Source: a virus (Duplodnaviria > Heunggongvirae > Uroviricota > Caudoviricetes). Taken from it: a DNA stretch of 41,177 nt. Location: positions 1-41,177 of the IMG/VR virus record IMGVR_UViG_2534681997_000004; one strand, given 5' to 3'. Positions 1 to 41,177 of this stretch are shown here, piece by piece. The notes under the pieces are model-generated. The model searched no databases, was not told the DNA's origin, and saw only the letters and a list, made by a program, of their open reading frames with translations. Positions within the stretch are counted from its first letter, which is position 1; each line of letters begins with the position of its first letter. A program made the translations under genes and the position numbers.

Positions 1-1194
1 ATGATCACCGACACAAAGCTCAGGAAGGCGCTCGGCAAGAAAAGAGATGATATCGAGATTATTTCTGATTCGCACGGGCTCAACGCCAGAATCAGCCAAG
101 CCGGAAAAATATCATTTTTCTATCGGTATCGCTGGGCCGGTAAAGCGGTAAAACTCAATGTTGGTGATTATCCTGCAATGAGTATCACCCAGGCAAGAGA
201 GCGTCGCCAACAATTCAGAAACTGGTTAACTGAGGGACTGGATCCGCGAGAGCAGGTGAAGCTGGATAAGCAGACCCGACAGGAAGCGATGTCCGTTGCC
301 GAAGCGTTCAATTACTGGATTGAAAGGCACTGTATCGCTAACGGGCTAGTTAAAGTCGATTACTATCGCCAGGTGTTTGAGAAACATATCGCCGAACCGA
401 TGAAGAATGTCAAAGTCGATAACACAGCGAAAATGCACTGGATCAACGTCTTCGATTCTATAGAAAGCAGGGTGATGGCTCATTACATGCTTTCGCTGTG
501 CAAACGGGCGTTTAGGTTCTGCGTTAACAGAAGTGTGATCGCCTCAAACCCACTCGAGGGATTACTGCCATCTGATGTCGGGCAAAAGCCTAAAAAGAGA
601 ACTCGCAGGATGGACGATGACGATCTGCGCAAAATCTATCAGTGGTTGAAAAGCCATATGTCGATAGAGTCCGTTTTCCTGGTGAAATTTATTATGCTTA
701 CCGGATGCCGTACGGCTGAGATTCGACTTAGTGAGAGATCATGGTTTCGATTGGATGATAATGAGTGGGTCGTGCCTGCGGGCAGTTATAAAACTCGGGT
801 ACATATTAGAAGGGGACTCTCAGACGCCGCCGTTAACCTGGTCAGAAATCACCTCAAGAAAATAAACACCAATCACCTGGTGACTTCACAACGTAAAATT
901 GATGGCGGGATCAAAGATTCGCCCGTTCATTCACCTGTGGCATCCAATTACGCCCGTTCTATTTGGAATGGAACAGGTATGGCAGAGTGGTCGCTTCATG
1001 ATATGAGGCGGACGATAGCCACAAATCTCTCTGAGTTAGGTTGCCCGCCGCACGTAATTGAAAAGCTGCTCGGGCATCAGATGGTGGGGGTTATGGCGCA
1101 TTACAACCTTCATGACTATATCGATGATCAGAAACACTGGCTCCGCGTTTGGCAGAGCCATCTTGAAGAGATCATCGGAGAGCCCTTCAGTTAA
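1..1194 (+). CDS. int: Tyrosine recombinase / phage integrase (P4-like family)
   Basis: 397-aa ORF; C-terminal catalytic region with LHDMRRT (HxxR) and LGHQ...MAHY motifs typical of tyrosine integrases; ORF begins at window position 1 so the true N-terminus may lie upstream. Confidence 0.85.
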
Positions 1195-1433
1195 TTTATC
1201 TTCTTTTTATCCTCCCACTCTTTGATTGACTCAGAGCGCCAGCGGTTAGGGTTGCCGGGCCAGTCAGGGGGTGGGAACGGGCATACGAAGCCCCGAGGCA
1301 TTGTGTCTGCACTTTGCCATGACCAAAGGGTTTTGCGTGAAATTTTGTAGCGACTGGTCAGGTCTGACGTTACCAAAATATCATCCATAGCTCTCTCCAG
1401 TTGCCCGTTCGGGCCATTCAAAATCTTTTTCAA
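1191..1433 (-). CDS. AlpA-family excisionase / small HTH regulator
   Basis: 80-aa ORF overlapping the int stop; [21 protein letters not shown] resembles the AlpA/Xis HTH; start codon ambiguous (internal Met at 1388 possible). Confidence 0.55.
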
Positions 1434-1672
1434 CCAACCTGCCCGGGCAGGGAGCGGAGACGGCGCATGCCGGTCATCGCTGTGGCCACGTAGCTCGCCT
1501 TTCGGTTCACCACCTCCACCCAGACTTTCACGCCTTCAACCTTCACCGTATAAGTCTCTTTCATCTTGCTTCGCCCATAGTCGCCATATGTTTGCAAGTG
1601 AGCTGCCAGCGCGATGTCGCATGCTTGGCGAGCTAAAGGTGATTGCTTACTTCCTCGATTGATCAGTCGCAT
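1430..1672 (-). CDS. Hypothetical protein
   Basis: 80-aa ORF between recT-like gene and excisionase, overlapping the downstream start by 4 nt. Confidence 0.35.
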   Translation of the reverse strand: MRLINRGSKQSPLARQACDIALAAHLQTYGDYGRSKMKETYTVKVEGVKVWVEVVNRKASYVATAMTGMRRLRSLPGQVG

Positions 1673-1710
1673 ATAATCTCCTTGAGGGAGGGTTACCCCT
1701 CCCGGTCTCG

Positions 1711-2829
1711 TCAGGCCACGTATTCCGGTTTCATATCCGCCAGGGTGATGCTGAATTGATCGTGCAGTTCATCGCCTAAGTGACGCTTTGAAGATGCAAG
1801 CATGCGCTCGGCTTCAGCGAACCGTTCGGCTGCATGCGGCTCGTCGGGCTGGGGCAGGGATTTAATAGCCTCCTCAACCTTGTTGCGTGCATCCACTAGG
1901 TAATAACGCTTTACGGCTTTGTTTTTCAGCTCGGTGAATAGTGCGGATCCCAGCGTAGCTTTCGCCGTTTCAATGTCGGCACGCAGCGATTTGGCGCTAT
2001 CCACGTCCTGAGCAGATTCGATGCGTTCGCGGAAATCATCGGCAAGAGAGCCGACATTTACCGACGATTCCTGTGCGCTTTGCGTGGTTGTGACGGTGTC
2101 ACCTGAGATATCAGCCAGGCTAACGCGTTGCGGCGTTGGGTTGATCTCTTTTTCTGTGCGCTGTTCAATCTCATCAGGGGTGTACACACCAAGAACAACT
2201 GCAGGGCAATACAGGCGCGCCCAGTATTTGAGTGCCAGATAAGCGATCTGCTGTTTCGGGTTTGATACCCAAAGTGGAGAATTACGTGTGATTACGCTGG
2301 AGAGGAAAACAGGCTCTCCCCAGGTGATATCACTTTCACCGCGAATAACGGCACCTACCCGTACCGACAGTCCTTGTTCATCAGCACTTTCCCAACCGCG
2401 TACCATTTCTTTCTTGTCGTACGTCCCGCCACCTTTCGCAGGCTTTTTAACGGTTATCTCGCGGCTGCTGGCACATTTCGACCAGTCGCCCTCGTACTCA
2501 TAGTGAAAGCGGCCAACGATGGCGTTTGAGCTGGAGATCACCGCATTAACCAGTTGCGCTTCGTATCCCAGGACACCGTTAACCAGGTGCGTCTTTTGCG
2601 CCACGGCGTAAGGGTTCATACCCCACTGCATCGCCTGCATGATGATGGCCATGCAGTCTGCCGGATTGCCGCGGAGGTGCTCAGGCACCGTTACGGCTGC
2701 CTGTGCCATCAACCCGGCGACAGACTGAAGCTGGGTTAAAGCCTGCACGTTGAAAATGGCATTGCTGGCTGAGATCGTGTTTGGAGTCTGCTGTTCAGCG
2801 GTTACGATATTCGTGTTTTCCATCATCAT
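1711..2829 (-). CDS. recT: RecT-family single-strand annealing protein
   Basis: 372-aa ORF immediately downstream of the RecE-like gene; central region (GNPADCMAIIMQAMQWGMNP...) resembles the RecT core; recE-recT gene order. Confidence 0.65.
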   Translation of the reverse strand: MMMENTNIVTAEQQTPNTISASNAIFNVQALTQLQSVAGLMAQAAVTVPEHLRGNPADCMAIIMQAMQWGMNPYAVAQKTHLVNGVLGYEAQLVNAVISSSNAIVGRFHYEYEGDWSKCASSREITVKKPAKGGGTYDKKEMVRGWESADEQGLSVRVGAVIRGESDITWGEPVFLSSVITRNSPLWVSNPKQQIAYLALKYWARLYCPAVVLGVYTPDEIEQRTEKEINPTPQRVSLADISGDTVTTTQSAQESSVNVGSLADDFRERIESAQDVDSAKSLRADIETAKATLGSALFTELKNKAVKRYYLVDARNKVEEAIKSLPQPDEPHAAERFAEAERMLASSKRHLGDELHDQFSITLADMKPEYVA

Positions 2830-2834
2830 TCCCC

Positions 2835-5669
2835 TTATGCCTGAGTACGCAGCGCTTCAAGGCGGCGCAGGTCGAAGTCGTTCAGTTCGTCGGTGTAGTC
2901 AGCAGTGATTGGCGCTGGCCATTCACCTGTGTCGAATCCGGTTGCGATATTGCGCATCGCTTTGCGGTACTCGAGCATACCCAGCTCCAGTAGTTCAGCG
3001 GATGCCTCGATGATGGCGATCCAGTGGTAGTTCTCGTCTTTGTTGACGAAAATCCAGAAGAACTGATCCAGCGCTGCGGTTTCGCAGTACATAGCCGCGC
3101 TCAGGTGATAATCACGTTCAATAATTTCCCGGTGTAGCCTGGCGCGCAGGCTTTCCTGCTTAACATTCCACATGCTGATGGTTTTCAGGTCAGCACCGAT
3201 ACGCACGCCGTCTAGGTCGATCTCAAGGTCAGGGCGCACACGAACTTCCAGTCCCGTCTCCTCGTCAAAGCCAAAGTAGCTCACCTCAACGGCGCGGCTC
3301 GGGTGGGTTAGCAGCATGCCTGCGGTCGGGTGTGCCAGCAGGGCCGACTGGATGGCCTGGGCGGTCACCAGCTGCTGGCGCGTCACCAGAATCTTGTCGC
3401 CCGGATTTTCTCGCCAGGCGTCCAGCAGCTCGTCGGCGAATACGGCATCGGGTTTAACCGACTTAATCGCTTGGATCATTTCCGCTTTGCTGCCGGACAC
3501 CTTAAGCGGTGCCGGCTTCTGGGCTTCCTGCTCCACCAGGTCAGGGTTGATGATTGCCAGCTGTTCAAGCAGCGCATCGCGGCTGCCGCTGGTTTTAACC
3601 GGCGCGGGCAGGGTGGCGTTGTACTCTTTGATGCAGGCTTTCATAGCTGCTGCGGTCTGCTTCTGGTCTGGCTCGATGCGCTGGTACTCTGCCGGCAAAG
3701 CCATATAGCTCTGGGCCGTTTCCTCCAGGCTGGCGCCCAGCGGCAGCTGCGCGGGCAGGGTGGCGTTGTGCTCTTCAAGCAGCGCTTTGATATCGTCAGT
3801 GCTCAGCAGTGCCGGCAGGGTGGCGTTGTGCGAATCGATGAACTCGCGCAGGGTGGCGGTGGTAGTAAAAGCATCTTCCGGGATCTCCGGCTCCACGCTG
3901 AACTCTGCCTCAAGGTTTTCAGGCTGCAGCGCCAGGGCGTGAACCAGATTACCCATGTCCAGCACCTTGGAAGGGGCCCGCGGGATAGTTTTGGCGACGT
4001 GGCGCGCGTTGAAGTACATCAGGCTGACCCTGGCATCCTTCACCTGGGTGGAACTGATCCCGTTCGCCGCGTGATAAACGTCATTCGGCACGCCTTCATA
4101 GCGGCCCGGTTCGAAGTACGCCGGGTATTCCGGGACCGGTTGTGAAGGTTGCTCTTCCGGCGCGCTCGCTTTCTCCTCTGATGCTTCGGTGGTCAATTCC
4201 TGCGTAGTGGCGTTCGCCAGCTCCGGCGCCGCGGCGGAGAGCACCTCAGCCGGGTTCAGGGTATCTGTTTGCGGATCAGTTGCATCAGCGCTTTCGCCTG
4301 GTGGTACCGTATCAACAGTTTTGTCTTTCTCTGGCTGAGTCGCTTCCATCTGCACATCGCTGGTGGTCTCCACTACGGTTTCCGGTTTTTCTGCTTCATT
4401 TGAGGGAATATTGATGACCGGGTTAGTATTTCCACTCAACAGGCCATTGATGGAGAACATGCCACCGCCGAGGTTCGCGACCTGCGGCTGAGCTGTTGGT
4501 TCCTCAACCTCTACTTGCGTCTGAACCGCGGACGCGCGCAGGGGCATCAGTTCAGTTGCGGCGTTAAACTCAGCGGTCATGGTCTGGTTAACGAACTCCA
4601 GATGGGCCGCCGGCGTACGATGAATGTTTTCCGGTGCGATCCGTACCAGGTTGAAAATGGCCGCACGGTTTACCGACAGAACGCCAGGCTGGTTACGCAG
4701 AAGGGCGCTCCATGATTTCCAGGGCTCTTCTTTTTTCGCCACGATTTCTTTGGCGCGACGGTGAATGCTGCCCGGGATCTCAAGGTGGTTGAAATCCATC
4801 GGCAGCAGGGCACAGGCGATCTCCAGATCCAGTGTGTCCAGCGTGTGATGCGCACCTTCGCCGCGGTCGGTGACATATCCACCATCGGCATTGGTACCTG
4901 CGTCAGTGCGCTGAACACTACTGATGTGATTACCGGCAGCCCATTCACGCGCCAGGATGCCACGGTCAATGTAATCAGTCGCCGCCCACATTCTGGTGAA
5001 ACGGAGTACCAGCGCGAGTTCGTGACGCTTGTCCTGGCTGAACACTTTGCGAATGGCATCGGTGTAGCGCCACAGGTCTTTGGTGTCGTAACCCTTCACT
5101 TCCGGGCAGTTCTCAGCAGCTAACAGCAAGTTCTGGACGTAACTGTTATCAGTGTCCATCTCCAGCGCGCCGATAGCTTCGTACTCTTCGCGGGTTACGT
5201 GGTGGCGCAGTTCGTCGGCGGTGAACTGGGAAAGCAGTTGCTTACGAAACGGCATCTGCACTACCGGGTAGAGGGTTGAGTCGTCGTCGTGTTCGTCCAG
5301 CGTGATGCCAGCGGTTTCTGGCAGCGTTGACTCAGTAGTTATGTGACTATCAACGGTCTGAGCCGTTTTCTCGTCAGAGTTTTCAGCTGTGACTTTTGGC
5401 AGCCAGGTGCGGTCATCGTTCTGCAGTTCGTAGCGTTTGCACCAGGTGTAATCCACTGCGCCTTCTTCCGGCAGGTCGTCATATACCGGGAAATCGGTGC
5501 GGATTGGTTTGGCATAATCTTTACCGCGGCCAGTTTCTTCAATTCCGGCTTCTTCCAGTGCCACATCGAGTTGGAGATTGGCGCGCGCTACACTTTTCGC
5601 AGTGAACCAAATCACTGCATCTTTCTTGCCAGACTTCTGACTGGCTTTTATCAGATGGAAAAATTCCAT
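2835..5669 (-). CDS. recE: RecE-like exonuclease VIII
   Basis: Long ORF; N-terminus (MEFFHLIKASQKSGKKDAVIWF...FPVYDDLPEEGAVDYTW) resembles RecE; C-terminal nuclease-like domain; start chosen at ATG 5669 preceded by AGAGGA RBS (ORF track extends to 5774 via an alternative start). Confidence 0.65.
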   Translation of the reverse strand: MEFFHLIKASQKSGKKDAVIWFTAKSVARANLQLDVALEEAGIEETGRGKDYAKPIRTDFPVYDDLPEEGAVDYTWCKRYELQNDDRTWLPKVTAENSDEKTAQTVDSHITTESTLPETAGITLDEHDDDSTLYPVVQMPFRKQLLSQFTADELRHHVTREEYEAIGALEMDTDNSYVQNLLLAAENCPEVKGYDTKDLWRYTDAIRKVFSQDKRHELALVLRFTRMWAATDYIDRGILAREWAAGNHISSVQRTDAGTNADGGYVTDRGEGAHHTLDTLDLEIACALLPMDFNHLEIPGSIHRRAKEIVAKKEEPWKSWSALLRNQPGVLSVNRAAIFNLVRIAPENIHRTPAAHLEFVNQTMTAEFNAATELMPLRASAVQTQVEVEEPTAQPQVANLGGGMFSINGLLSGNTNPVINIPSNEAEKPETVVETTSDVQMEATQPEKDKTVDTVPPGESADATDPQTDTLNPAEVLSAAAPELANATTQELTTEASEEKASAPEEQPSQPVPEYPAYFEPGRYEGVPNDVYHAANGISSTQVKDARVSLMYFNARHVAKTIPRAPSKVLDMGNLVHALALQPENLEAEFSVEPEIPEDAFTTTATLREFIDSHNATLPALLSTDDIKALLEEHNATLPAQLPLGASLEETAQSYMALPAEYQRIEPDQKQTAAAMKACIKEYNATLPAPVKTSGSRDALLEQLAIINPDLVEQEAQKPAPLKVSGSKAEMIQAIKSVKPDAVFADELLDAWRENPGDKILVTRQQLVTAQAIQSALLAHPTAGMLLTHPSRAVEVSYFGFDEETGLEVRVRPDLEIDLDGVRIGADLKTISMWNVKQESLRARLHREIIERDYHLSAAMYCETAALDQFFWIFVNKDENYHWIAIIEASAELLELGMLEYRKAMRNIATGFDTGEWPAPITADYTDELNDFDLRRLEALRTQA

Positions 5670-36219: not shown

Positions 36220-36653
36220 GTGACATCGCTTCATTCTGGAATGTGGATGAGATGTTTGCTGACTGGCAGAAAGGGCTGGGTGAACTCACCACGGGGAACG
36301 ATTTACAGACTGCAATACTGGACAGCCTGTTTACCGACAGGCTGGCGCGCGCTGACGATGATTATGAGGATAGCGATCGCCGCGGCTGGTGGGGGGATTC
36401 CGGGGAGGAATCCCAACTGGGATCCCGGCTGTGGCTGCTACGGCGGAAAAAACTGACCCCGGATGTAGCAAAAAAAGCGGAGGAATACTCGAGTGAAGCG
36501 CTCAACTGGTTAAAGGTTGATGGCGTTGTCAGCGAGGTTATTCCTGTTGCAAGGATCGTCCTGCCTGACCGGCTCAATCTCATTATCCGCTATCAGGCAC
36601 CGGGGAAGGACTGGCAGGAATTCAGGTTTTACTGGATATGGGAGCAACGTTAA
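36216..36653 (+). CDS. Baseplate protein, GP46 family
   Basis: 145 aa; position before the baseplate J-like gene. Confidence 0.6.
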   Translation: MSDIASFWNVDEMFADWQKGLGELTTGNDLQTAILDSLFTDRLARADDDYEDSDRRGWWGDSGEESQLGSRLWLLRRKKLTPDVAKKAEEYSSEALNWLKVDGVVSEVIPVARIVLPDRLNLIIRYQAPGKDWQEFRFYWIWEQR

Positions 36654-36655
36654 TA

Positions 36656-37797
36656 TGCCGTTTAAACGACCGACGCTGAGCGAACTCCGCGACGGAAACC
36701 GGAAATTTATGCAGGCGGAGCTTGAGGATGTTGGTGCGCTCCTGCGCTTCGCGAACCTGAAGGTACTGGCTGACATGGATGCGGGGATGGGGCATCTGCA
36801 TTACGCCTACCTTGACTATATTGCCCTGCAGACAAACCCGTTTACCTCTACCGATGAGTATCTCGCCGGGTGGATGGCCCTTAAGCAGGTATTCAGAAAA
36901 CCAGCTGCAGCGGCGAAGTCGCCTGCGGTACAGGCTAGTGGCAGTGTTGACTGTATTATCCCTGTTGGCTCGATCATTAACCGCGGGGACGGATACCAGT
37001 ACCGGACGGATGCAGATCTTAAAATTCAGGCAGATGGATTTGGTATCGTCGCGGTGACGGCCATCCTGCCGGATATTACCAGTGATGTAACGGGTGGAGG
37101 CGCGCGCGGTAACGCTGATGCCGGGACCATAATGACCCTGGACGCGAATATTGCTGGCGTGGATCCACAGGTAACGTTACTGTCCGCTGCGACCGGCGGA
37201 GCCGATATTGAAACGGAAGAGGATTTTCGCAGTCGTGGCTTGCTGGCATGGCAGAATCCGCCTCAGGGTGGAAGCGACGCCGATTATAAAAAATGGGCGC
37301 TTGAGGTTTCGGGCGTCACCCGCGCGTGGGTAAAGCGGCGTCTGAACGGGGCCGGGACCGTTGGCGTGTATATCATGTGTGATCGGAATGACAATGGTGG
37401 GTTTCCGGTCGGTACCGACGGAATATCCCAACTTGAGGACTGGGGGGCTGTTAAAGCCACCGGAGACCAGCTCGCTGTCGCCGACCACATCTATCCGCAG
37501 CAGACAGACACTGCCATTGTTTTCGTATGTTCCCCGATCAAGAAAGTCATCAATATTGAAATCTCTGGGATCAAAAATGCCGACAGCACCACAGTTCAGG
37601 GGATAAAAGACGCGCTGACGGCGCTGTTTTTTGATGAAGCTAACCCTGATGGTTCCGGGAAAGTTTACCTCTCTGATATTAACGGGAGTATCGGCGGTGT
37701 TAGCGGCACGACGGGCTATATCCTTAACTCTCCGACGGCCAATATCACCTTTGCTGTTGGCGAAATTCCGGTGCTTGGCGGGGTGAATTTTGTATGA
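36656..37797 (+). CDS. Baseplate J-like protein (Mu gp47-like)
   Basis: About 380 aa from ATG 36656; baseplate J family character and position. Confidence 0.7.
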
Positions 37798-38387
37798 GCC
37801 TCTTTTCAAAAAATGATTATGCCGGTGCGCTTGGTGCGCTGCTACCGACGGGCAGGGCGTGGCCCCGGTCGCAAAGAACGGTACAGGCTGCGGTATTACG
37901 GGCACTGGGCAGCGCGTTTCAGCGTTCTGACAACGATGCGCAAAGCCTGATTACTGGTGCTTTTCCCCCTACAGCGACGGTAATGTTGTCAGAATGGGAA
38001 AGCTCTCTGGGGTTACCAGATGATTGTGCGATTGGTGAATCCGGTGGCGTCAGCGATCGCCAGCGCGCCGTGGTGGCAAAGTTAATCAGCACCGGCGGCC
38101 TGAACCGCGATTATTACATCCGGGTGGCTGCAGCTCTTGGTTATACCATCACTATCACACAGTTCCGGCCCGCTATGAGTGGCATGTCAGTATGCGGTGA
38201 TGCGCTTAACGGTGACGAGTGGCCATTTACCTGGCGGATAAATGCGCCACAAACAACGATCAAGTATTCGCTTGCTGGCGCGTCCTACTGCGGAGATCCG
38301 CTCGCATCGTGGGGCAATAAACAACTGGAGTGTTCAATCAACAAAATTGCCCCATCCCATCTGAACATCATTTTCAATTATTCATAA
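37794..38387 (+). CDS. Tail protein, Mu gp48-like (DUF2313/YmfQ-like)
   Basis: 197 aa immediately upstream of the tail fibre gene. Confidence 0.55.
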   Translation: MSLFSKNDYAGALGALLPTGRAWPRSQRTVQAAVLRALGSAFQRSDNDAQSLITGAFPPTATVMLSEWESSLGLPDDCAIGESGGVSDRQRAVVAKLISTGGLNRDYYIRVAAALGYTITITQFRPAMSGMSVCGDALNGDEWPFTWRINAPQTTIKYSLAGASYCGDPLASWGNKQLECSINKIAPSHLNIIFNYS

Positions 38388-38438
38388 CTGATATTTCCCC
38401 CTCTGATTTTATCGCTTAACACTAAGTGAGGATTAACT

Positions 38439-39101
38439 ATGCTCCGAATCGGGCAAGTCGAAGCCACTGCAACGCAGGATGGCAAATATACTGATGGAAG
38501 TGTTGCTGGTGGTATTGCCGCAACGAGGCTGCGGGCCGCAGCGTTTAACGCCATGCAGGAAGAGTTAGCGCATATTGTAGAGTCGGCAGGATTGGCGCTC
38601 GACATTAACGATATGACGCAGGTTTTAAAAGCAATTCAAAAACTGACACTGAGCCGTATAAACCCATTCGCTGATATCAAATCAGATGGTGCAGCGGCGA
38701 TTTCTACGGCTCTCGCAAACCTTGATTTGGGAGAGGCGGCAAAACGGGATGTAGGGACAGGGGAAAATCAGATACCGGACATGAACGCATGGAGCCATAG
38801 CGGCCCAGCAACTGGCCGCTGGAGAAAATCACCTGACGGACTTATTGAGCAATGGGGAAGTGCTGGTATATCAGATGCATACGGCAACGCGGCAGTGACA
38901 TTCCCTATTGCCTTCTCTTCCGAACCTGATTTTGTTTTATTTGGGCCGCGAAACGTGACAGCACCTACAAGGATGACGTCTATCGTGCTTGACGAGAGCC
39001 AGTTACGTAATACCGGATTTACATGCAGATGCTTTGACCATTTAGATGGATCTACTACGCCAAGCACAAGTAACTTTTATTGGTATTGCAGGGGATATTG
39101 A
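38439..39101 (+). CDS. Tail fibre protein (constant N-terminus plus variable C-terminus, currently expressed orientation)
   Basis: 220 aa; followed by a tail fibre assembly gene and an inverted second fibre/assembly pair. Confidence 0.6.
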   Translation: MLRIGQVEATATQDGKYTDGSVAGGIAATRLRAAAFNAMQEELAHIVESAGLALDINDMTQVLKAIQKLTLSRINPFADIKSDGAAAISTALANLDLGEAAKRDVGTGENQIPDMNAWSHSGPATGRWRKSPDGLIEQWGSAGISDAYGNAAVTFPIAFSSEPDFVLFGPRNVTAPTRMTSIVLDESQLRNTGFTCRCFDHLDGSTTPSTSNFYWYCRGY

Positions 39102-39103
39102 TA

Positions 39104-39544
39104 ATGAACGTCTATTACTATAGTGCCATGAACAACGCCTTTTACCTGGCGGAGAACATTGATCTCTACAAAGAACAAAGCACCTGGCCATCTGACGCGA
39201 TAAAAGTTGAAGATAGTCTGTTTGATGAATTTAATTCACCACCGCCAGGGAAAATTCGCGCAGCGGGGGAAAATGGTTTGCCAGTATGGATTGACATTCC
39301 ACAGCCAACACCTGGCGAGATTATTGCAATTGCAGAATATAAAAAGAAGATTCTGATTTCTGATGCTAATAGCTACATCAGCGCCAAACAATGGCCAGGT
39401 AAAGCCGCCATTGGTCGTCTGAAAGGTGATGAACTGGCGCAATATAATTTGTGGCTGGATTATCTGGACGCACTGGAGCTGATCGATACTTCCGGTGCGC
39501 CAGATATTGAATGGCCTACGCCTCCGGGGGAACAGGCCAGTTAA
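39104..39544 (+). CDS. Tail fibre assembly protein (Tfa)
   Basis: N-terminal MNVYYYSAMNNAFY motif typical of Tfa chaperones. Confidence 0.7.
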   Translation: MNVYYYSAMNNAFYLAENIDLYKEQSTWPSDAIKVEDSLFDEFNSPPPGKIRAAGENGLPVWIDIPQPTPGEIIAIAEYKKKILISDANSYISAKQWPGKAAIGRLKGDELAQYNLWLDYLDALELIDTSGAPDIEWPTPPGEQAS

Positions 39545-39869
39545 CATTCTCGGGATCGGTTTTGACCTCCCACGCCTTAACCTCATTTTTATAATCCAGC
39601 CACGCTGACAGCTTAGCTTTGTTGGCGTCGCTGATTTCACCCAGCATCAATTCCGTACGCCAGTCGAGCATAACAGCGTCTGCATGGGTCAGTAGTTGCT
39701 GACGCTCGTATTCGGCTGCGGCAATTAATTCCTCTTTGGTAGGAGGCGGATTCAATATTTCATTTGCTTCATTTTCTGTTATTAGCGTTAATCCTTCGGC
39801 AATGAACTCTTCATCACACTCATCTTCATACGCGTAAATATTATTTTCGTCATCAATATAATATTTCAT
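39516..39869 (-). CDS. Alternative tail fibre assembly protein (inverted copy)
   Basis: GGAGGG RBS before ATG 39869; MKYYIDDENNIYAY Tfa-type N-terminus; convergent and overlapping with the plus-strand tfa. Confidence 0.65.
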   Translation of the reverse strand: MKYYIDDENNIYAYEDECDEEFIAEGLTLITENEANEILNPPPTKEELIAAAEYERQQLLTHADAVMLDWRTELMLGEISDANKAKLSAWLDYKNEVKAWEVKTDPENVNWPVPPEA

Positions 39870-40576
39870 CGTAATTCCCTCCACGTGAACGTTGTAATGC
39901 CAGATACGTTAACTCTGTAAGTGGAACCCGGAGGAATAACCGGGCAATATCCACCGGCACCCGATGGCGTTAATCCATCTACCACAATATTTAAAACCCA
40001 TGATGTTGTTGGTCGGACAAAGTCCAGCAAAAGCTGTATCGGTTTTCCGGTGGTGTTTGTATAAGTGACACCTACTGAACGCTGTGACGTCACATCAACC
40101 CATGACTGACCGTGTCCGAGTAAAGGAAGATTGATATCTTTACTGCCATCAAAAGAAACGCCATTAATTAACCGTGCAACAGAAAGCTTTGCTGCAGCCA
40201 CCGCGACAGCATTCGACGCAAGTGCGCCAATGTCTGCAGGAGTTGGTTTATGGTTTGTTCCATAAAACTCAGTCCAGGGCTTCCACGGTCCCCCTGTCGT
40301 TTCAAGCCCCCTTACAAATTTTCGTCCAGAGCCGAAAGCGGTGTACTCCTGCTGGCAACCGTAGGCGCTGGGGGTGACTAACAGCGTACCGGCTTCTTTG
40401 ATGGGGTAATGATGCTCGGACGTGGCATTCTCATCAAGAGACTGAAAATACACTCCCGCACTGGAAAAATCGTAAAGCGTATTCAGGTCAATGGTTAAAG
40501 CTGACTCTTTAACCTGAAACGCATTTGCCGCCAGTTTTACTGTTTCTTCCAAATGAACCTTTTTTATAACCATCAA
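39866..40576 (-). CDS. Alternative tail fibre variable C-terminal segment (not fused to the constant part in this orientation)
   Basis: 236-aa ORF on the opposite strand upstream of the alternative tfa; its frame stays open only 11 codons upstream of the first Met. Confidence 0.55.
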   Translation of the reverse strand: MMVIKKVHLEETVKLAANAFQVKESALTIDLNTLYDFSSAGVYFQSLDENATSEHHYPIKEAGTLLVTPSAYGCQQEYTAFGSGRKFVRGLETTGGPWKPWTEFYGTNHKPTPADIGALASNAVAVAAAKLSVARLINGVSFDGSKDINLPLLGHGQSWVDVTSQRSVGVTYTNTTGKPIQLLLDFVRPTTSWVLNIVVDGLTPSGAGGYCPVIPPGSTYRVNVSGITTFTWRELR

Positions 40577-40597
40577 AAATCTGGTGATGCTTCGCCG

Positions 40598-40623
40598 TTT
40601 CTCCTGTTTTCATAACAGGAGAA
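40598..40623. promoter_or_regulatory. Palindrome overlapping the invertase ribosome-binding site
   Basis: TTCTCCTGTT-ttcat-AACAGGAGAA, perfect 10-bp arms; right arm contains the AGGAGA RBS 7 nt before the invertase ATG. Confidence 0.4.
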
Positions 40624-40628
40624 ATCCC

Positions 40629-41177
40629 ATGATTTACGGTTATGCCCGAGTATCAACAAACCACCAGGACACTGAATTGCAACTAACGGCGCTCAAGTCA
40701 GCGGGTTGTGAGAAAATTTTTGAAGAGCATGCCAGCGGGAGGAAATCGAATCGGCCGGTTCTAAAACGGCTGATCGCCACTATGCAGCCGGGGGATGAAC
40801 TGGTGGTCTGGAAGCTGGACAGGATAGGCCGCAACGTTCTGCATGCGCTGTTGATGTTCCAGCAGTTACAGGAAAAGGGTATCAACTTCCGCAGTATTAC
40901 CGATGGCGTGGATCTCAAAACAGCCAGCGGCCGCTATAACTTTCGTAACATCCTTTCCGCAGCACAATATGAATCTGATCTTAATAGCGAACGTACCTTA
41001 GCAGGGCTGGCCGTAGCCAGGGCAAAAGGGCGAGTTGGTGGTCGCAGGCCTAAGTTCACGGATGAGCAATGGCGGGAAATGGGGGAGCGGATGGCAACCG
41101 GTGAATCACGACAAAGCGTATCAAAAACGTATGGAGTAGGGCTCTCAACTCTGTATAAAAAGTTTCCAGCTAGCTGA
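40629..41177 (+). CDS. Serine recombinase, DNA invertase (Hin/Gin/Pin family)
   Basis: MIYGYARVSTNHQD catalytic N-terminus, VVWKLDRIGRN, and C-terminal HTH ending ...STLYKKFPAS; stop coincides with the window end. Confidence 0.85.
   Translation: MIYGYARVSTNHQDTELQLTALKSAGCEKIFEEHASGRKSNRPVLKRLIATMQPGDELVVWKLDRIGRNVLHALLMFQQLQEKGINFRSITDGVDLKTASGRYNFRNILSAAQYESDLNSERTLAGLAVARAKGRVGGRRPKFTDEQWREMGERMATGESRQSVSKTYGVGLSTLYKKFPAS

Follow-up and report, generated by a model that had tools for sequence, protein, structure and literature searches.

A probable tail-fibre inversion cassette of the e14 P / Mu G type, with a PinL-type invertase, at the 3' end of an E. coli prophage

The 3' end of the E. 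coli prophage described here very probably holds a switch of the e14 P / Mu G type that works by site-specific inversion and is served by an invertase of the PinL type. This is a known type of device, and the mechanism of such switches, as already understood, is unchanged by it. Dimers of the PinL-type invertase would bind two inverted 26-bp sites (38710-38735 and 40544-40569), cleave them at the central TT/AA dinucleotides and, following strand rotation and religation, leave the 1,836-bp stretch 38722-40557 inverted. Because the cores fall on codon positions 2-3 in both fibre frames, the constant N-terminus (residues 1-95) would be in frame in either orientation. As found in the window (i.e., the whole 41,177-base stretch of DNA analysed), it would carry a 125-residue gp53-like tip, followed by the chaperone gene tfa; after inversion, it would carry a 229-residue alternative tip to give a fibre of 324 aa, with tfa' next in line. 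Since the tips are unrelated in sequence, a virion population would be of one receptor specificity or the other.

Anatomy of the Cassette

The prophage, whose sequence is 100% identical to NCBI GCA_000305175.1, has a Mu-like baseplate and is integrated beside yciI, with the cassette standing at its 3' end. The open reading frames of 38439-41177 comprise a fibre gene, tfa, tfa', a minus-strand fibre ORF and an invertase gene, all five at the places and on the strands that an earlier note on this DNA had assigned to them. The features of the region are as follows.

38439-39101, plus strand: whole fibre gene (Pfam Gp53-like_C, E=7e-10)
38439..38721, plus strand: constant fibre part Sc (residues 1-94 and the first base of codon 95), outside the invertible segment and expressed whichever way the segment lies
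38710..38735, plus strand: left crossover site, CTCTCGCAAACC TT GATTTGGGAGAG, a 12-2-12 dyad with core TT at 38722-38723
38724..39101, plus strand: present variable tip Sv, gp53-like C-terminal domain (residues 96-220; PF21882 over residues 130-220)
39104..39544, plus strand: chaperone tfa, 146 aa, partner of the expressed tip (Caudo_TAP, E=3e-27; phrog_188, tail fiber assembly protein, E=2e-55)
39516..39869, minus strand: chaperone tfa', 117 aa, partner of the silent tip (Caudo_TAP, E=1.5e-17)
39866..40555, minus strand: silent alternative tip Sv', 229 codons plus stop (ORF list; PHROG tail-fibre matches)
39866-40576, minus strand: headless fibre C-terminal ORF in its full mechanical extent, with ATG 40573 and TTG 40576 both in constant DNA beyond the segment
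40544..40569, minus strand: right crossover site, reading TTATAAAAAAGG TT CATTTGGAAGAA on the minus strand, with core AA at 40556-40557 on the plus strand
40598..40624, plus strand: 11-bp perfect hairpin (RNA fold) over the ribosome-binding site of the invertase gene (AGGAG, 40617-40621)
40629..41177, plus strand: PinL-type serine invertase, 182 aa (Resolvase and HTH_7), its stop codon ending at the last base of the window

The order Sc - [Sv, tfa, inverted tfa', inverted Sv'] - invertase, in which Sv' has no N-terminal fibre domain of its own, is the layout of the annotated e14 and Mu cassettes, and tfa' is convergent with tfa, overlapping it by 29 bp. The central claim of the earlier note, a cassette of the Mu G / P1 C / e14 P type, is borne out by the gene order and by a fibre N-terminus and crossover motif that are homologous to those of e14 P. 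The minus-strand fibre ORF has no match in a Pfam search; it does match tail-fibre families of PHROG, in their internal and C-terminal parts, and, by tblastn, distant tail fibres. NCBIfam offers no specific model for any fibre or tfa protein, and its matches to the invertase are all sub-threshold. An earlier count of 11 codons open upstream of the first Met in the minus-strand frame was near the mark, the TGA at 40612-40610 lying 12 codons before TTG and 13 before ATG 40573.

Crossover Sites

A search for inverted repeats, proposed in the earlier note as a check, returned 71 pairs, and although the true pair was the longest of these (32 nt, 72% complementary), its length was unconvincing by itself, and a site model was needed. 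Other loci and Mu gix were the only sources of a half-site matrix, with which every 12-2-12 dyad of the 41,177 bases was scored. The left site proved to be the best dyad of the whole window, at 25.2 bits, and the right site the second, at 18.5 bits, a score that is partly circular since its outer half is identical in relatives that went into the matrix; the third dyad reached 12.6 bits. Over 30 shuffles, the maximum averaged 12.5 +/- 2.5, with 18.5 as the highest value, and exactly two sites in the window stand above background. The same matrix recovers the annotated boundaries of the Mu G segment (gix) and the pix sites of e14.

The two sites are inverted relative to each other, and both have a core TT when read in the direction of the fibre. 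They agree at 16 of 26 positions, and at 10 of 14 over the core and inner half-site, and the repeats are more degenerate than usual. Directly beside the core, the inner half-sites deviate from the family's usual GGTTTGGGAGAA, opening with GA in the left site and with CA in the right. The left site falls in the codons for ANLDLGE, a fibre motif shared with e14 pix and Mu gix.

The earlier note had put the crossovers at 38620-38645, around the codons for QVLKAIQKL, and at 40557-40583. The first of these lies about 90 bp upstream of the real left site and in the wrong codons; the second is misplaced as well, but overlaps the real right site by 13 bp. Its proposed sites do share 14 of 26 positions in inverted orientation, as it had said, but crossover there is effectively refuted by breakpoint mapping. 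The left stretch scores below all twelve top dyads (the lowest at 7.4 bits), it belongs to a constant block in which all relatives are collinear to about 38722, and homology to e14 and Mu puts the site in the NL(G/D)LGE codons.

Breakpoints, Orientation and Use of the Silent Tip

BLAST comparisons place the ends of the variable segment at the same two points as the matrix. Relatives from E. coli and IMG/VR match the constant part of the fibre collinearly, at 96-99% identity, as far as 38727-38742, beyond which similarity ends unless the same tip module comes next, and in many loci the breakpoint lies exactly at 38722, the left core. On the right, the block conserved with relatives begins at 40544-40557, and similarity ends or starts at these two places in dozens of loci. 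The first 62 bp of the gp53-like module (38722-38783) adjoin the constant part in some relatives, and in many others they abut the core of the right site on the other strand.

Both orientations occur among relatives that have the same invertase and outer sites as the window. For example, between E. coli AREA_C483 (L005) and a prophage from IMG/VR (L031), the whole 1,849-bp segment from core to core is reverse-complemented at 97.4% identity, and both of its flanks are collinear. Short-read assemblies tell of the same boundary; two contigs (L011 and L015) start exactly at 40557, and the first of these (1,962 bp) has TT and an inner half-site at both of its ends. That these contigs end at the cores suggests populations that are mixed, or more than one context. 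We infer from its sequence and from these relatives that the present copy inverts as well.

Inversion of the segment in silico yields an in-frame, open fibre of 324 aa, with the predicted recombinant junctions ...CTCTCGCAAACCTTCATTTGGAAGAAACAG... and ...CCTCTCCCAAATCAACCTTTTTTATAACC... The alternative tip is in use elsewhere at just such a junction. In three proteins (P0002-P0004) it is fused to three unrelated fibre N-termini at ...L|HLEETVKL..., and in a fourth (P0001) a variant of it is joined to the StfP N-terminus of e14. The same 117-aa tfa' follows the expressed alternative tip in three other phage backbones, and the pair of tip and chaperone occurs in expressed form, joined at the very same place, in backbones of the e14-like, Mu-baseplate and P2-like kinds. 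The crossover codon is thus a junction for fibre-tip exchange among e14-like, Mu-baseplate and P2-like phages. In the window, the reading frames of the silent tip and its chaperone are both intact, with 95-97% identity to the expressed copies. The two tips are unrelated in sequence, one gp53-like and the other of a family named for the "pyocin knob", and each has its own chaperone; by homology with known switches, they probably bind different receptors and set host range.

Searches for this exact segment in the inverted state yielded no example. The predicted 324-aa fusion is absent from a set of 5.8 billion protein clusters, in which the best full-length match is 81% identical and carries the e14 N-terminus. 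Nor do the recombinant junctions occur in IMG/VR, JGI metagenomes or GTDB genomes, an absence that says little, since the parental junction is missing there as well. A pattern for the expressed and silent junctions of the alternative tip gave 0 matches in IMG/VR and JGI metagenomes and one chance-like match among GTDB genomes, in a Planctomycetaceae MAG, and six metagenome matches to the corresponding pattern for the gp53-like tip were all to unrelated sequence. Complete E. coli genomes lack the silent tip, their best matches covering <=53% of the region.

The Invertase and Its Regulation

The earlier note had assigned the invertase to the Hin/Gin/Pin family of serine recombinases, and this assignment holds. 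Its residues 1-181 align gapless to the Gin structures 3UJ3 and 4M6F (E=1e-56), and it matches Resolvase (PF00239, E=4e-39), HTH_7 (PF02796, E=1.5e-9) and the DNA invertases of phrog_125 (E=7e-75). Family membership was judged by a resolvase domain with a nucleophilic serine (S9/S10) and equivalents of R8, D67, R68 and R71, and the protein has such a domain and serine, along with a C-terminal helix-turn-helix and a length (182 aa) within the family's range of about 180-195 aa. In an alignment with Gin, PinE and PinL, a comparison of the kind that the earlier note had called for, R7, S9, D64, R65 and R68 are invariant, the catalytic serine being among them.

Identity is 52% to Gin, 55% to PinE and 100% to phi80 PinL over the 172 residues of the latter, and on its sequence the invertase is of the phi80 PinL type and not e14 PinE proper. 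An orthologue of PinE was considered and ruled out by the 55% identity and a different outer half of the right site.

A Fis-bound recombinational enhancer is usual in the 5' part of the Hin, Gin, Cin and Pin invertase genes, and this cassette presumably needs Fis and an enhancer as well. A crude consensus scan for an AT-rich G-N13-C pair 48 bp apart gave no convincing Fis-site pair for the 5' part of the invertase gene, but it is uninformative, since it recovers no clear pair in pinE either. The position equivalent to the gin Fis site at +94 reads GAAGAGCATGCCAGC, with a GC-rich centre. In addition, helix E differs from that of Gin, with R106, I108 and Y114 here versus H106, M108 and M114 in Gin, and we take these three positions to be where Fis-independent mutants map.

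The hairpin ahead of the gene folds at -20 kcal/mol (z=-3.7), a stability reached by 0 of 200 shuffles, and in phi80 the same element stands in the annotation as IR3, upstream of pinL. To judge from its position, it would bury the ribosome-binding site of the invertase and may have a regulatory role. Scans of the region for promoters and terminators gave counts at chance level.

These features bear on an alternative, that the cassette derives from an invertible segment that no longer flips, with the minus-strand tip and tfa' carried as silent cargo, whether because the sites have drifted apart, because the invertase is barely expressed or because the enhancer is missing. The agreement of the sites at only 16 of 26 positions, relative to identical stretches of 14-16 bp in e14 and most relatives, fits such a loss, as does the stable hairpin that hides the ribosome-binding site. 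All contigs that join this segment to its flanks show the window's orientation, so that only one orientation is on record for it, and one Logan contig (L013) runs through the right site unbroken; moreover, phi80 and HK225 show that the invertase can survive as an orphan with a single site. The single recorded orientation is weak evidence, however, because the independent observations are few, and in two other samples the contigs that carry this silent module end precisely at its core. Further, the invertase ORF is intact, with all catalytic residues kept, and 99-100% identical to copies in relatives seen in both orientations; both core dinucleotides are TT, as religation requires; and the silent tip and its chaperone have stayed intact and close to the expressed copies (95-97% identity). 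On balance, loss of inversion is an unlikely account of the cassette, and a working e14 P / Mu G type switch remains the preferred one.

Possible Roles of the Headless ORF

The ORF in the silent position (MVIKKV...) might serve host defence instead of, or besides, host range, as a headless tip that masks the receptor. The precedent is the e14 P segment, whose inversion is reported to create StfE2, a protein that blocks the adsorption of T2 (Kirigo et al. 2025; PMC12529663). Here, the silent OR­F has an in-frame ATG (40573) beyond the segment, the outer DNA is constant in relatives, and in either orientation the ORF in this position would begin at that ATG. This start has no recognisable ribosome-binding site before it, however, and the only promoter-like match in its direction is at the level of chance (4 found versus 4.1 expected). 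Unlike e14, the prophage also looks complete, its 41 kb extending from the integrase by way of the baseplate genes to the fibre, and a function in the virion is for this reason the simpler reading. We therefore consider a defensive role quite improbable.

Lower still in our estimation, and indeed very improbable, is the idea that the PinL-type cassette is more than a two-state switch, combining a differently regulated invertase with a headless receptor-masking fragment. Room for it is left by a helix E that diverges from those of Gin and Pin at the positions of Fis-independent mutants, together with the lack of a recognisable enhancer, by the conserved hairpin over the ribosome-binding site and by the in-frame outer ATG, which might allow either tip, when silent, to be produced as a free receptor-binding fragment. 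If it were true, an invertase that is perhaps enhancer-independent and translation-gated would be paired with a lysogen-protecting, StfE2-like protein, and one flip would couple host-range switching with superinfection defence.

Comparison with Known Systems

The two-state fibre switch preferred here closely resembles the e14 P segment with PinE (stfP-tfaP-tfaE-stfE-pinE), from a cryptic prophage of E. coli K-12. The genes follow one another in the same order and on the same strands, downstream of a YmfQ/gp48 gene, the overlap between the tfa genes is 29 bp in both, and the constant fibre part (the StfP N-terminus) is homologous over 95 residues up to the crossover codon. The core is TT in both, the crossover motif is ENLGLGE in e14 versus ANLDLGE here, and e14 pixL (CTCTCGAAAACC TT GGTTTGGGAGAA) differs from the left site at 3 of 26 positions. 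On the right, the outer half-site of e14 reads TTTTCATAAACG versus TTATAAAAAAGG here. The systems differ in that the e14 repeats are perfect over 16 bp (versus 10 of 14 for the core and inner half-site, and 16 of 26 for the whole site, here), both variable tips are different, and PinE is only 55% identical to this invertase; e14 is also a 15-kb remnant at icd, whereas the present prophage is full-length at yciI. The e14 repeats, TTGGTTTGGGAGAAGG with 1797 bp between them, are published (PMC12529663) and are recovered by our matrix, and inversion of the P segment has been shown experimentally (PMC4272514; PMC12529663).

The Mu G segment with Gin shares Mu-like baseplate genes (gp44-48) followed by Sc, [Sv-U-U'-Sv'] and the invertase, as well as 26-bp 12-2-12 dyads inside the fibre gene (in the codons for QNLGLQE in Mu) and an invertase that aligns without gaps. 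In Mu, however, the core is TC/GA instead of TT, the gix sites are identical over 34 bp, Gin is only 52% identical, the constant fibre part has about 170 residues versus 95, and the tips are unrelated. The phage described here has a lambdoid integrase and early genes, whereas Mu has transposition genes.

The invertase gene itself is that of the lambdoid siphoviruses phi80, HK225 and mEp237 (95-99% nucleotide identity), which also share with the window the IR3 hairpin, the right site, the attP/int module and integration at yciI. There, the invertase is an orphan, accompanied by only the right site and a fibre-module remnant that is either 62 bp or a pseudogene; no second crossover site was found in these three phages, in contrast to the full two-site cassette in the window. 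The orphan PinL of phi80 and HK225 thus comes from a complete inversion cassette.

The P1 C segment with Cin, Min of p15B and Hin of Salmonella belong to the same enzyme family and follow the same logic of site-specific inversion, although Hin flips a promoter and not the end of a gene. Min of p15B works on six sites, whereas exactly two stand above background here.

For the prophage family that is common at E. coli yciI, the value of these results to annotation lies in exact crossover points and a hidden second fibre of 324 aa. In the automatic annotation, the invertase appears only as a "recombinase family protein" and the silent tip as a separate "phage tail protein".

Organization of the cassette

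An invertible tail-fibre cassette of the e14 P / Mu G type, with an invertase of the phi80 PinL type, occupies the final 2.7 kb of the window. Such cassettes are already well known; the surprise is low, and the result is of use for annotation. ORF calling gave five genes, which are listed here with the two crossover sites.

Features of the cassette
38439-39101, plus strand: fibre gene, 220 aa; tip Gp53-like_C (Pfam)
38710-38735, plus strand: left site, CTCTCGCAAACC TT GATTTGGGAGAG, 12-2-12 dyad
39104-39544, plus strand: tfa, tail-fibre assembly gene, 146 aa; Caudo_TAP (Pfam)
39516-39869, minus strand: tfa', 117 aa, convergent with tfa; Caudo_TAP (Pfam)
39866-40573/40576, minus strand: silent tip ORF, 235/236 aa; PHROG tail-fibre matches
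40544-40569, read on minus strand: right site, TTATAAAAAAGG TT CATTTGGAAGAA, 12-2-12 dyad
40629-41177, plus strand: serine invertase, 182 aa; Resolvase and HTH_7 (Pfam)

A Mu gp48/YmfQ gene (Pfam) lies upstream of the fibre gene, and the window's final base is the end of the invertase stop codon. A Pfam search with the minus-strand tip ORF returned no match; the ORF resembles many PHROG tail-fibre families over their internal and C-terminal portions and, by tblastn, distant tail fibres. A TGA that lies 12-13 codons 5' of its start codons closes the reading frame. The anatomy described in the earlier note, with five genes on these strands and a minus-strand fibre frame that closes shortly upstream of its first Met, is correct.

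A 13-nt perfect inverted repeat (GTGGCTGGATTAT; 39451-39463 / 39591-39603), encoding WLDY in both chaperones, brackets the 29-bp overlap of the convergent tfa genes (39516-39544). Several short-read contigs end at 39498, so that assemblies often break at this conserved tfa end, which might also be a substrate for homologous module exchange.

Crossover sites

The earlier note's reading of an invertible fibre cassette is right apart from the positions of the sites, which it wrongly placed at 38620-38645 and 40557-40583; the supported dyads are those at 38710-38735 and 40544-40569. The longest pair from a generic repeat search was 38717-38748 with 40531-40562. When all dyads in the 41-kb window were scored with a half-site matrix built from other loci and Mu only, the left site ranked first (25.2 bits) and the right site second (18.5 bits), the third-best dyad reaching 12.6 bits; in a shuffle control (n=30), the maximum per shuffle averaged 12.5 +/- 2.5 bits, with a highest value of 18.5 bits. 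The same matrix recovered the annotated boundaries of the Mu G segment, as well as the e14 sites; the cores of the latter mark the ends of the 16-bp repeats published for e14, and the distance between these repeats is exactly the published 1797 bp (PMC12529663). The left site falls in the fibre codons ANLDLGE, the position homologous to that of the Mu gix site (TTATCCAAAACC TC GGTTTACAGGAA, in QNLGLQE) and of the e14 sites (CTCTCGAAAACC TT GGTTTGGGAGAA and TTTTCATAAACG TT GGTTTGGGAGAA, in ENLGLGE and INVGLGE, respectively).

In some IMG/VR loci, L054, L070 and L075 among them, the core is TC/GA, as in Mu, rather than TT/AA, and the invertases of these loci are ~84-95% identical to that of the window. 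A few IMG/VR loci have three or four candidate sites, a hint that the cassette also exists in multi-segment (Min-like) forms.

The invertase

Alignment bears out the Hin/Gin/Pin-family assignment of the earlier note: the protein aligns gap-free to Gin crystal structures (E=1e-56), shares 52% of its residues with Gin and 55% with PinE, and has retained the catalytic serine and arginines. By sequence it is of the PinL type, with 100% identity to phi80 PinL over the latter's 172 residues. Its DNA is 95-99% identical to phi80, HK225 and mEp237; these phages retain just the right site and a fibre-module remnant, so that their invertase is an orphan, whereas the cassette in the window is complete. 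Helix E (residues 103-118) reads YNFRNILSAAQYESDL in the window versus FFFHVMGALAEMEREL in Gin and PinE, and the differences at 106, 108 and 114 are at what we take to be the sites of Fis-independent mutants in Gin. A crude consensus scan for a Fis enhancer in the 5' part of the gene picked up no convincing pair of Fis sites, and it likewise missed a clear pair in pinE. An 11-bp perfect hairpin (40598-40624; TTTCTCCTGTT / AACAGGAGAAA), conserved and annotated as IR3 in phi80, covers the Shine-Dalgarno 5 nt before the invertase ATG (RNA fold -20 kcal/mol, z=-3.7) and may serve as a translational brake keeping invertase levels low.

Inversion among relatives

Where E. coli genomes or IMG/VR prophages share the constant fibre part and the invertase with the window, similarity to it ends at 38727-38742 and restarts at 40544, and the contents in between vary. 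The first 62 bp of the expressed tip (38722-38783) are found again in many loci, adjoining the constant part in some and, in ~20, lying on the opposite strand and ending exactly at the right-site core. Between L005 (E. coli AREA_C483) and L031 (an IMG/VR prophage), a 1,849-bp core-to-core segment is reverse-complemented at 97.4% identity within collinear flanks. Further support comes from L011, a contig of 1,962 bp from another assembly, in which the window's silent tip recurs at 99.9% identity. The contig starts TT-CATTTGGAAGAA and has TT-GGTTTGGAAGAT as its other-strand end; this is exactly the unit that an assembler gives if the segment joins its flanks two ways, and L015, a contig of a second sample, begins at the same base. 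Two prophage copies with shared flanks would also give this picture, which is supportive but less than decisive.

In L014 (ENA scaffold WUHA17-1...scaffold_5316, 1435 bp), a tfa' 98.7% identical to that of the window is followed directly by a same-strand invertase (87% identical), with no recognisable crossover site between them. This arrangement, unlike that of the window, may stem from a deletion or from sites laid out differently.

Product of the inversion

The core occupies codon positions 2-3 in both fibre frames, and a simulated flip of 38722-40557 yields an open 324-aa fibre with constant residues 1-95 followed by HLEETVKLAAN.... The exact fusion protein was absent from the searched collection of 5.8 billion protein clusters. 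The silent tip (95-97% identical) is found joined at exactly ...L/HLEETVKL... to three unrelated fibre N-termini, and a variant of it to the e14 StfP N-terminus; these tip-bearing fibres sit in e14-like, Mu-baseplate and P2-like tail modules, with the same 117-aa chaperone next in their contigs. Because the same tip is fused at this very point, with the same chaperone, in other phages, the silent ORF is predicted to be a working receptor-binding module, with the crossover codon as its natural junction.

Activity of this copy

Recombinant junctions were absent from IMG/VR, JGI metagenomes and GTDB genomes, but so were the parental junctions. All contigs joining the segment to its flanks share the window's orientation, and one passes the right site unbroken. 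Since serine invertases require matching cores and not identical arms, the cassette is rated probably active, although inversion may be infrequent. A frozen relic that no longer flips in this prophage would account for the missing inverted state of this very copy in contigs and junction searches, and would suit two sites alike at only 16/26 positions, with inner halves departing from the family's usual GGTTTGGGAGAA beside the core; the arms need no identity, however, and we consider such a relic unlikely. As a rival or added function, the silent-position protein might act as in e14, where it blocks T2 adsorption after inversion (PMC12529663), and the window's silent ORF does have its own ATG in constant DNA, but no ribosome-binding site or promoter is visible for it.

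The prophage and its location

The prophage combines lambdoid integration genes and a Mu-like baseplate with the cassette at its right end. Window positions 35516-41177 are 100% identical to contig JH970556.1 of GCA_000305175.1, where the invertase is followed, after ~120 bp, by yciI-tonB-yciA, a flank 99.9% identical to E. coli chromosomes. Together with the integrase/excisionase block at the window start (99.4% identity to phi80), this flank indicates that the element is a prophage of E. coli, integrated at the attachment site that phi80 and HK225 use.

Both ends of the window (1-4118, integrase/excisionase, and 40546-41177, invertase) are 95-99% identical to phi80 (L001) and HK225 (L002), pointing to an invertase-attP-int module common to siphoviruses and Mu-baseplate phages that use the yciI site. 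In phi80 and HK225 the three elements of this module lie side by side, and a single crossover site and a 62-bp fibre remnant are left.
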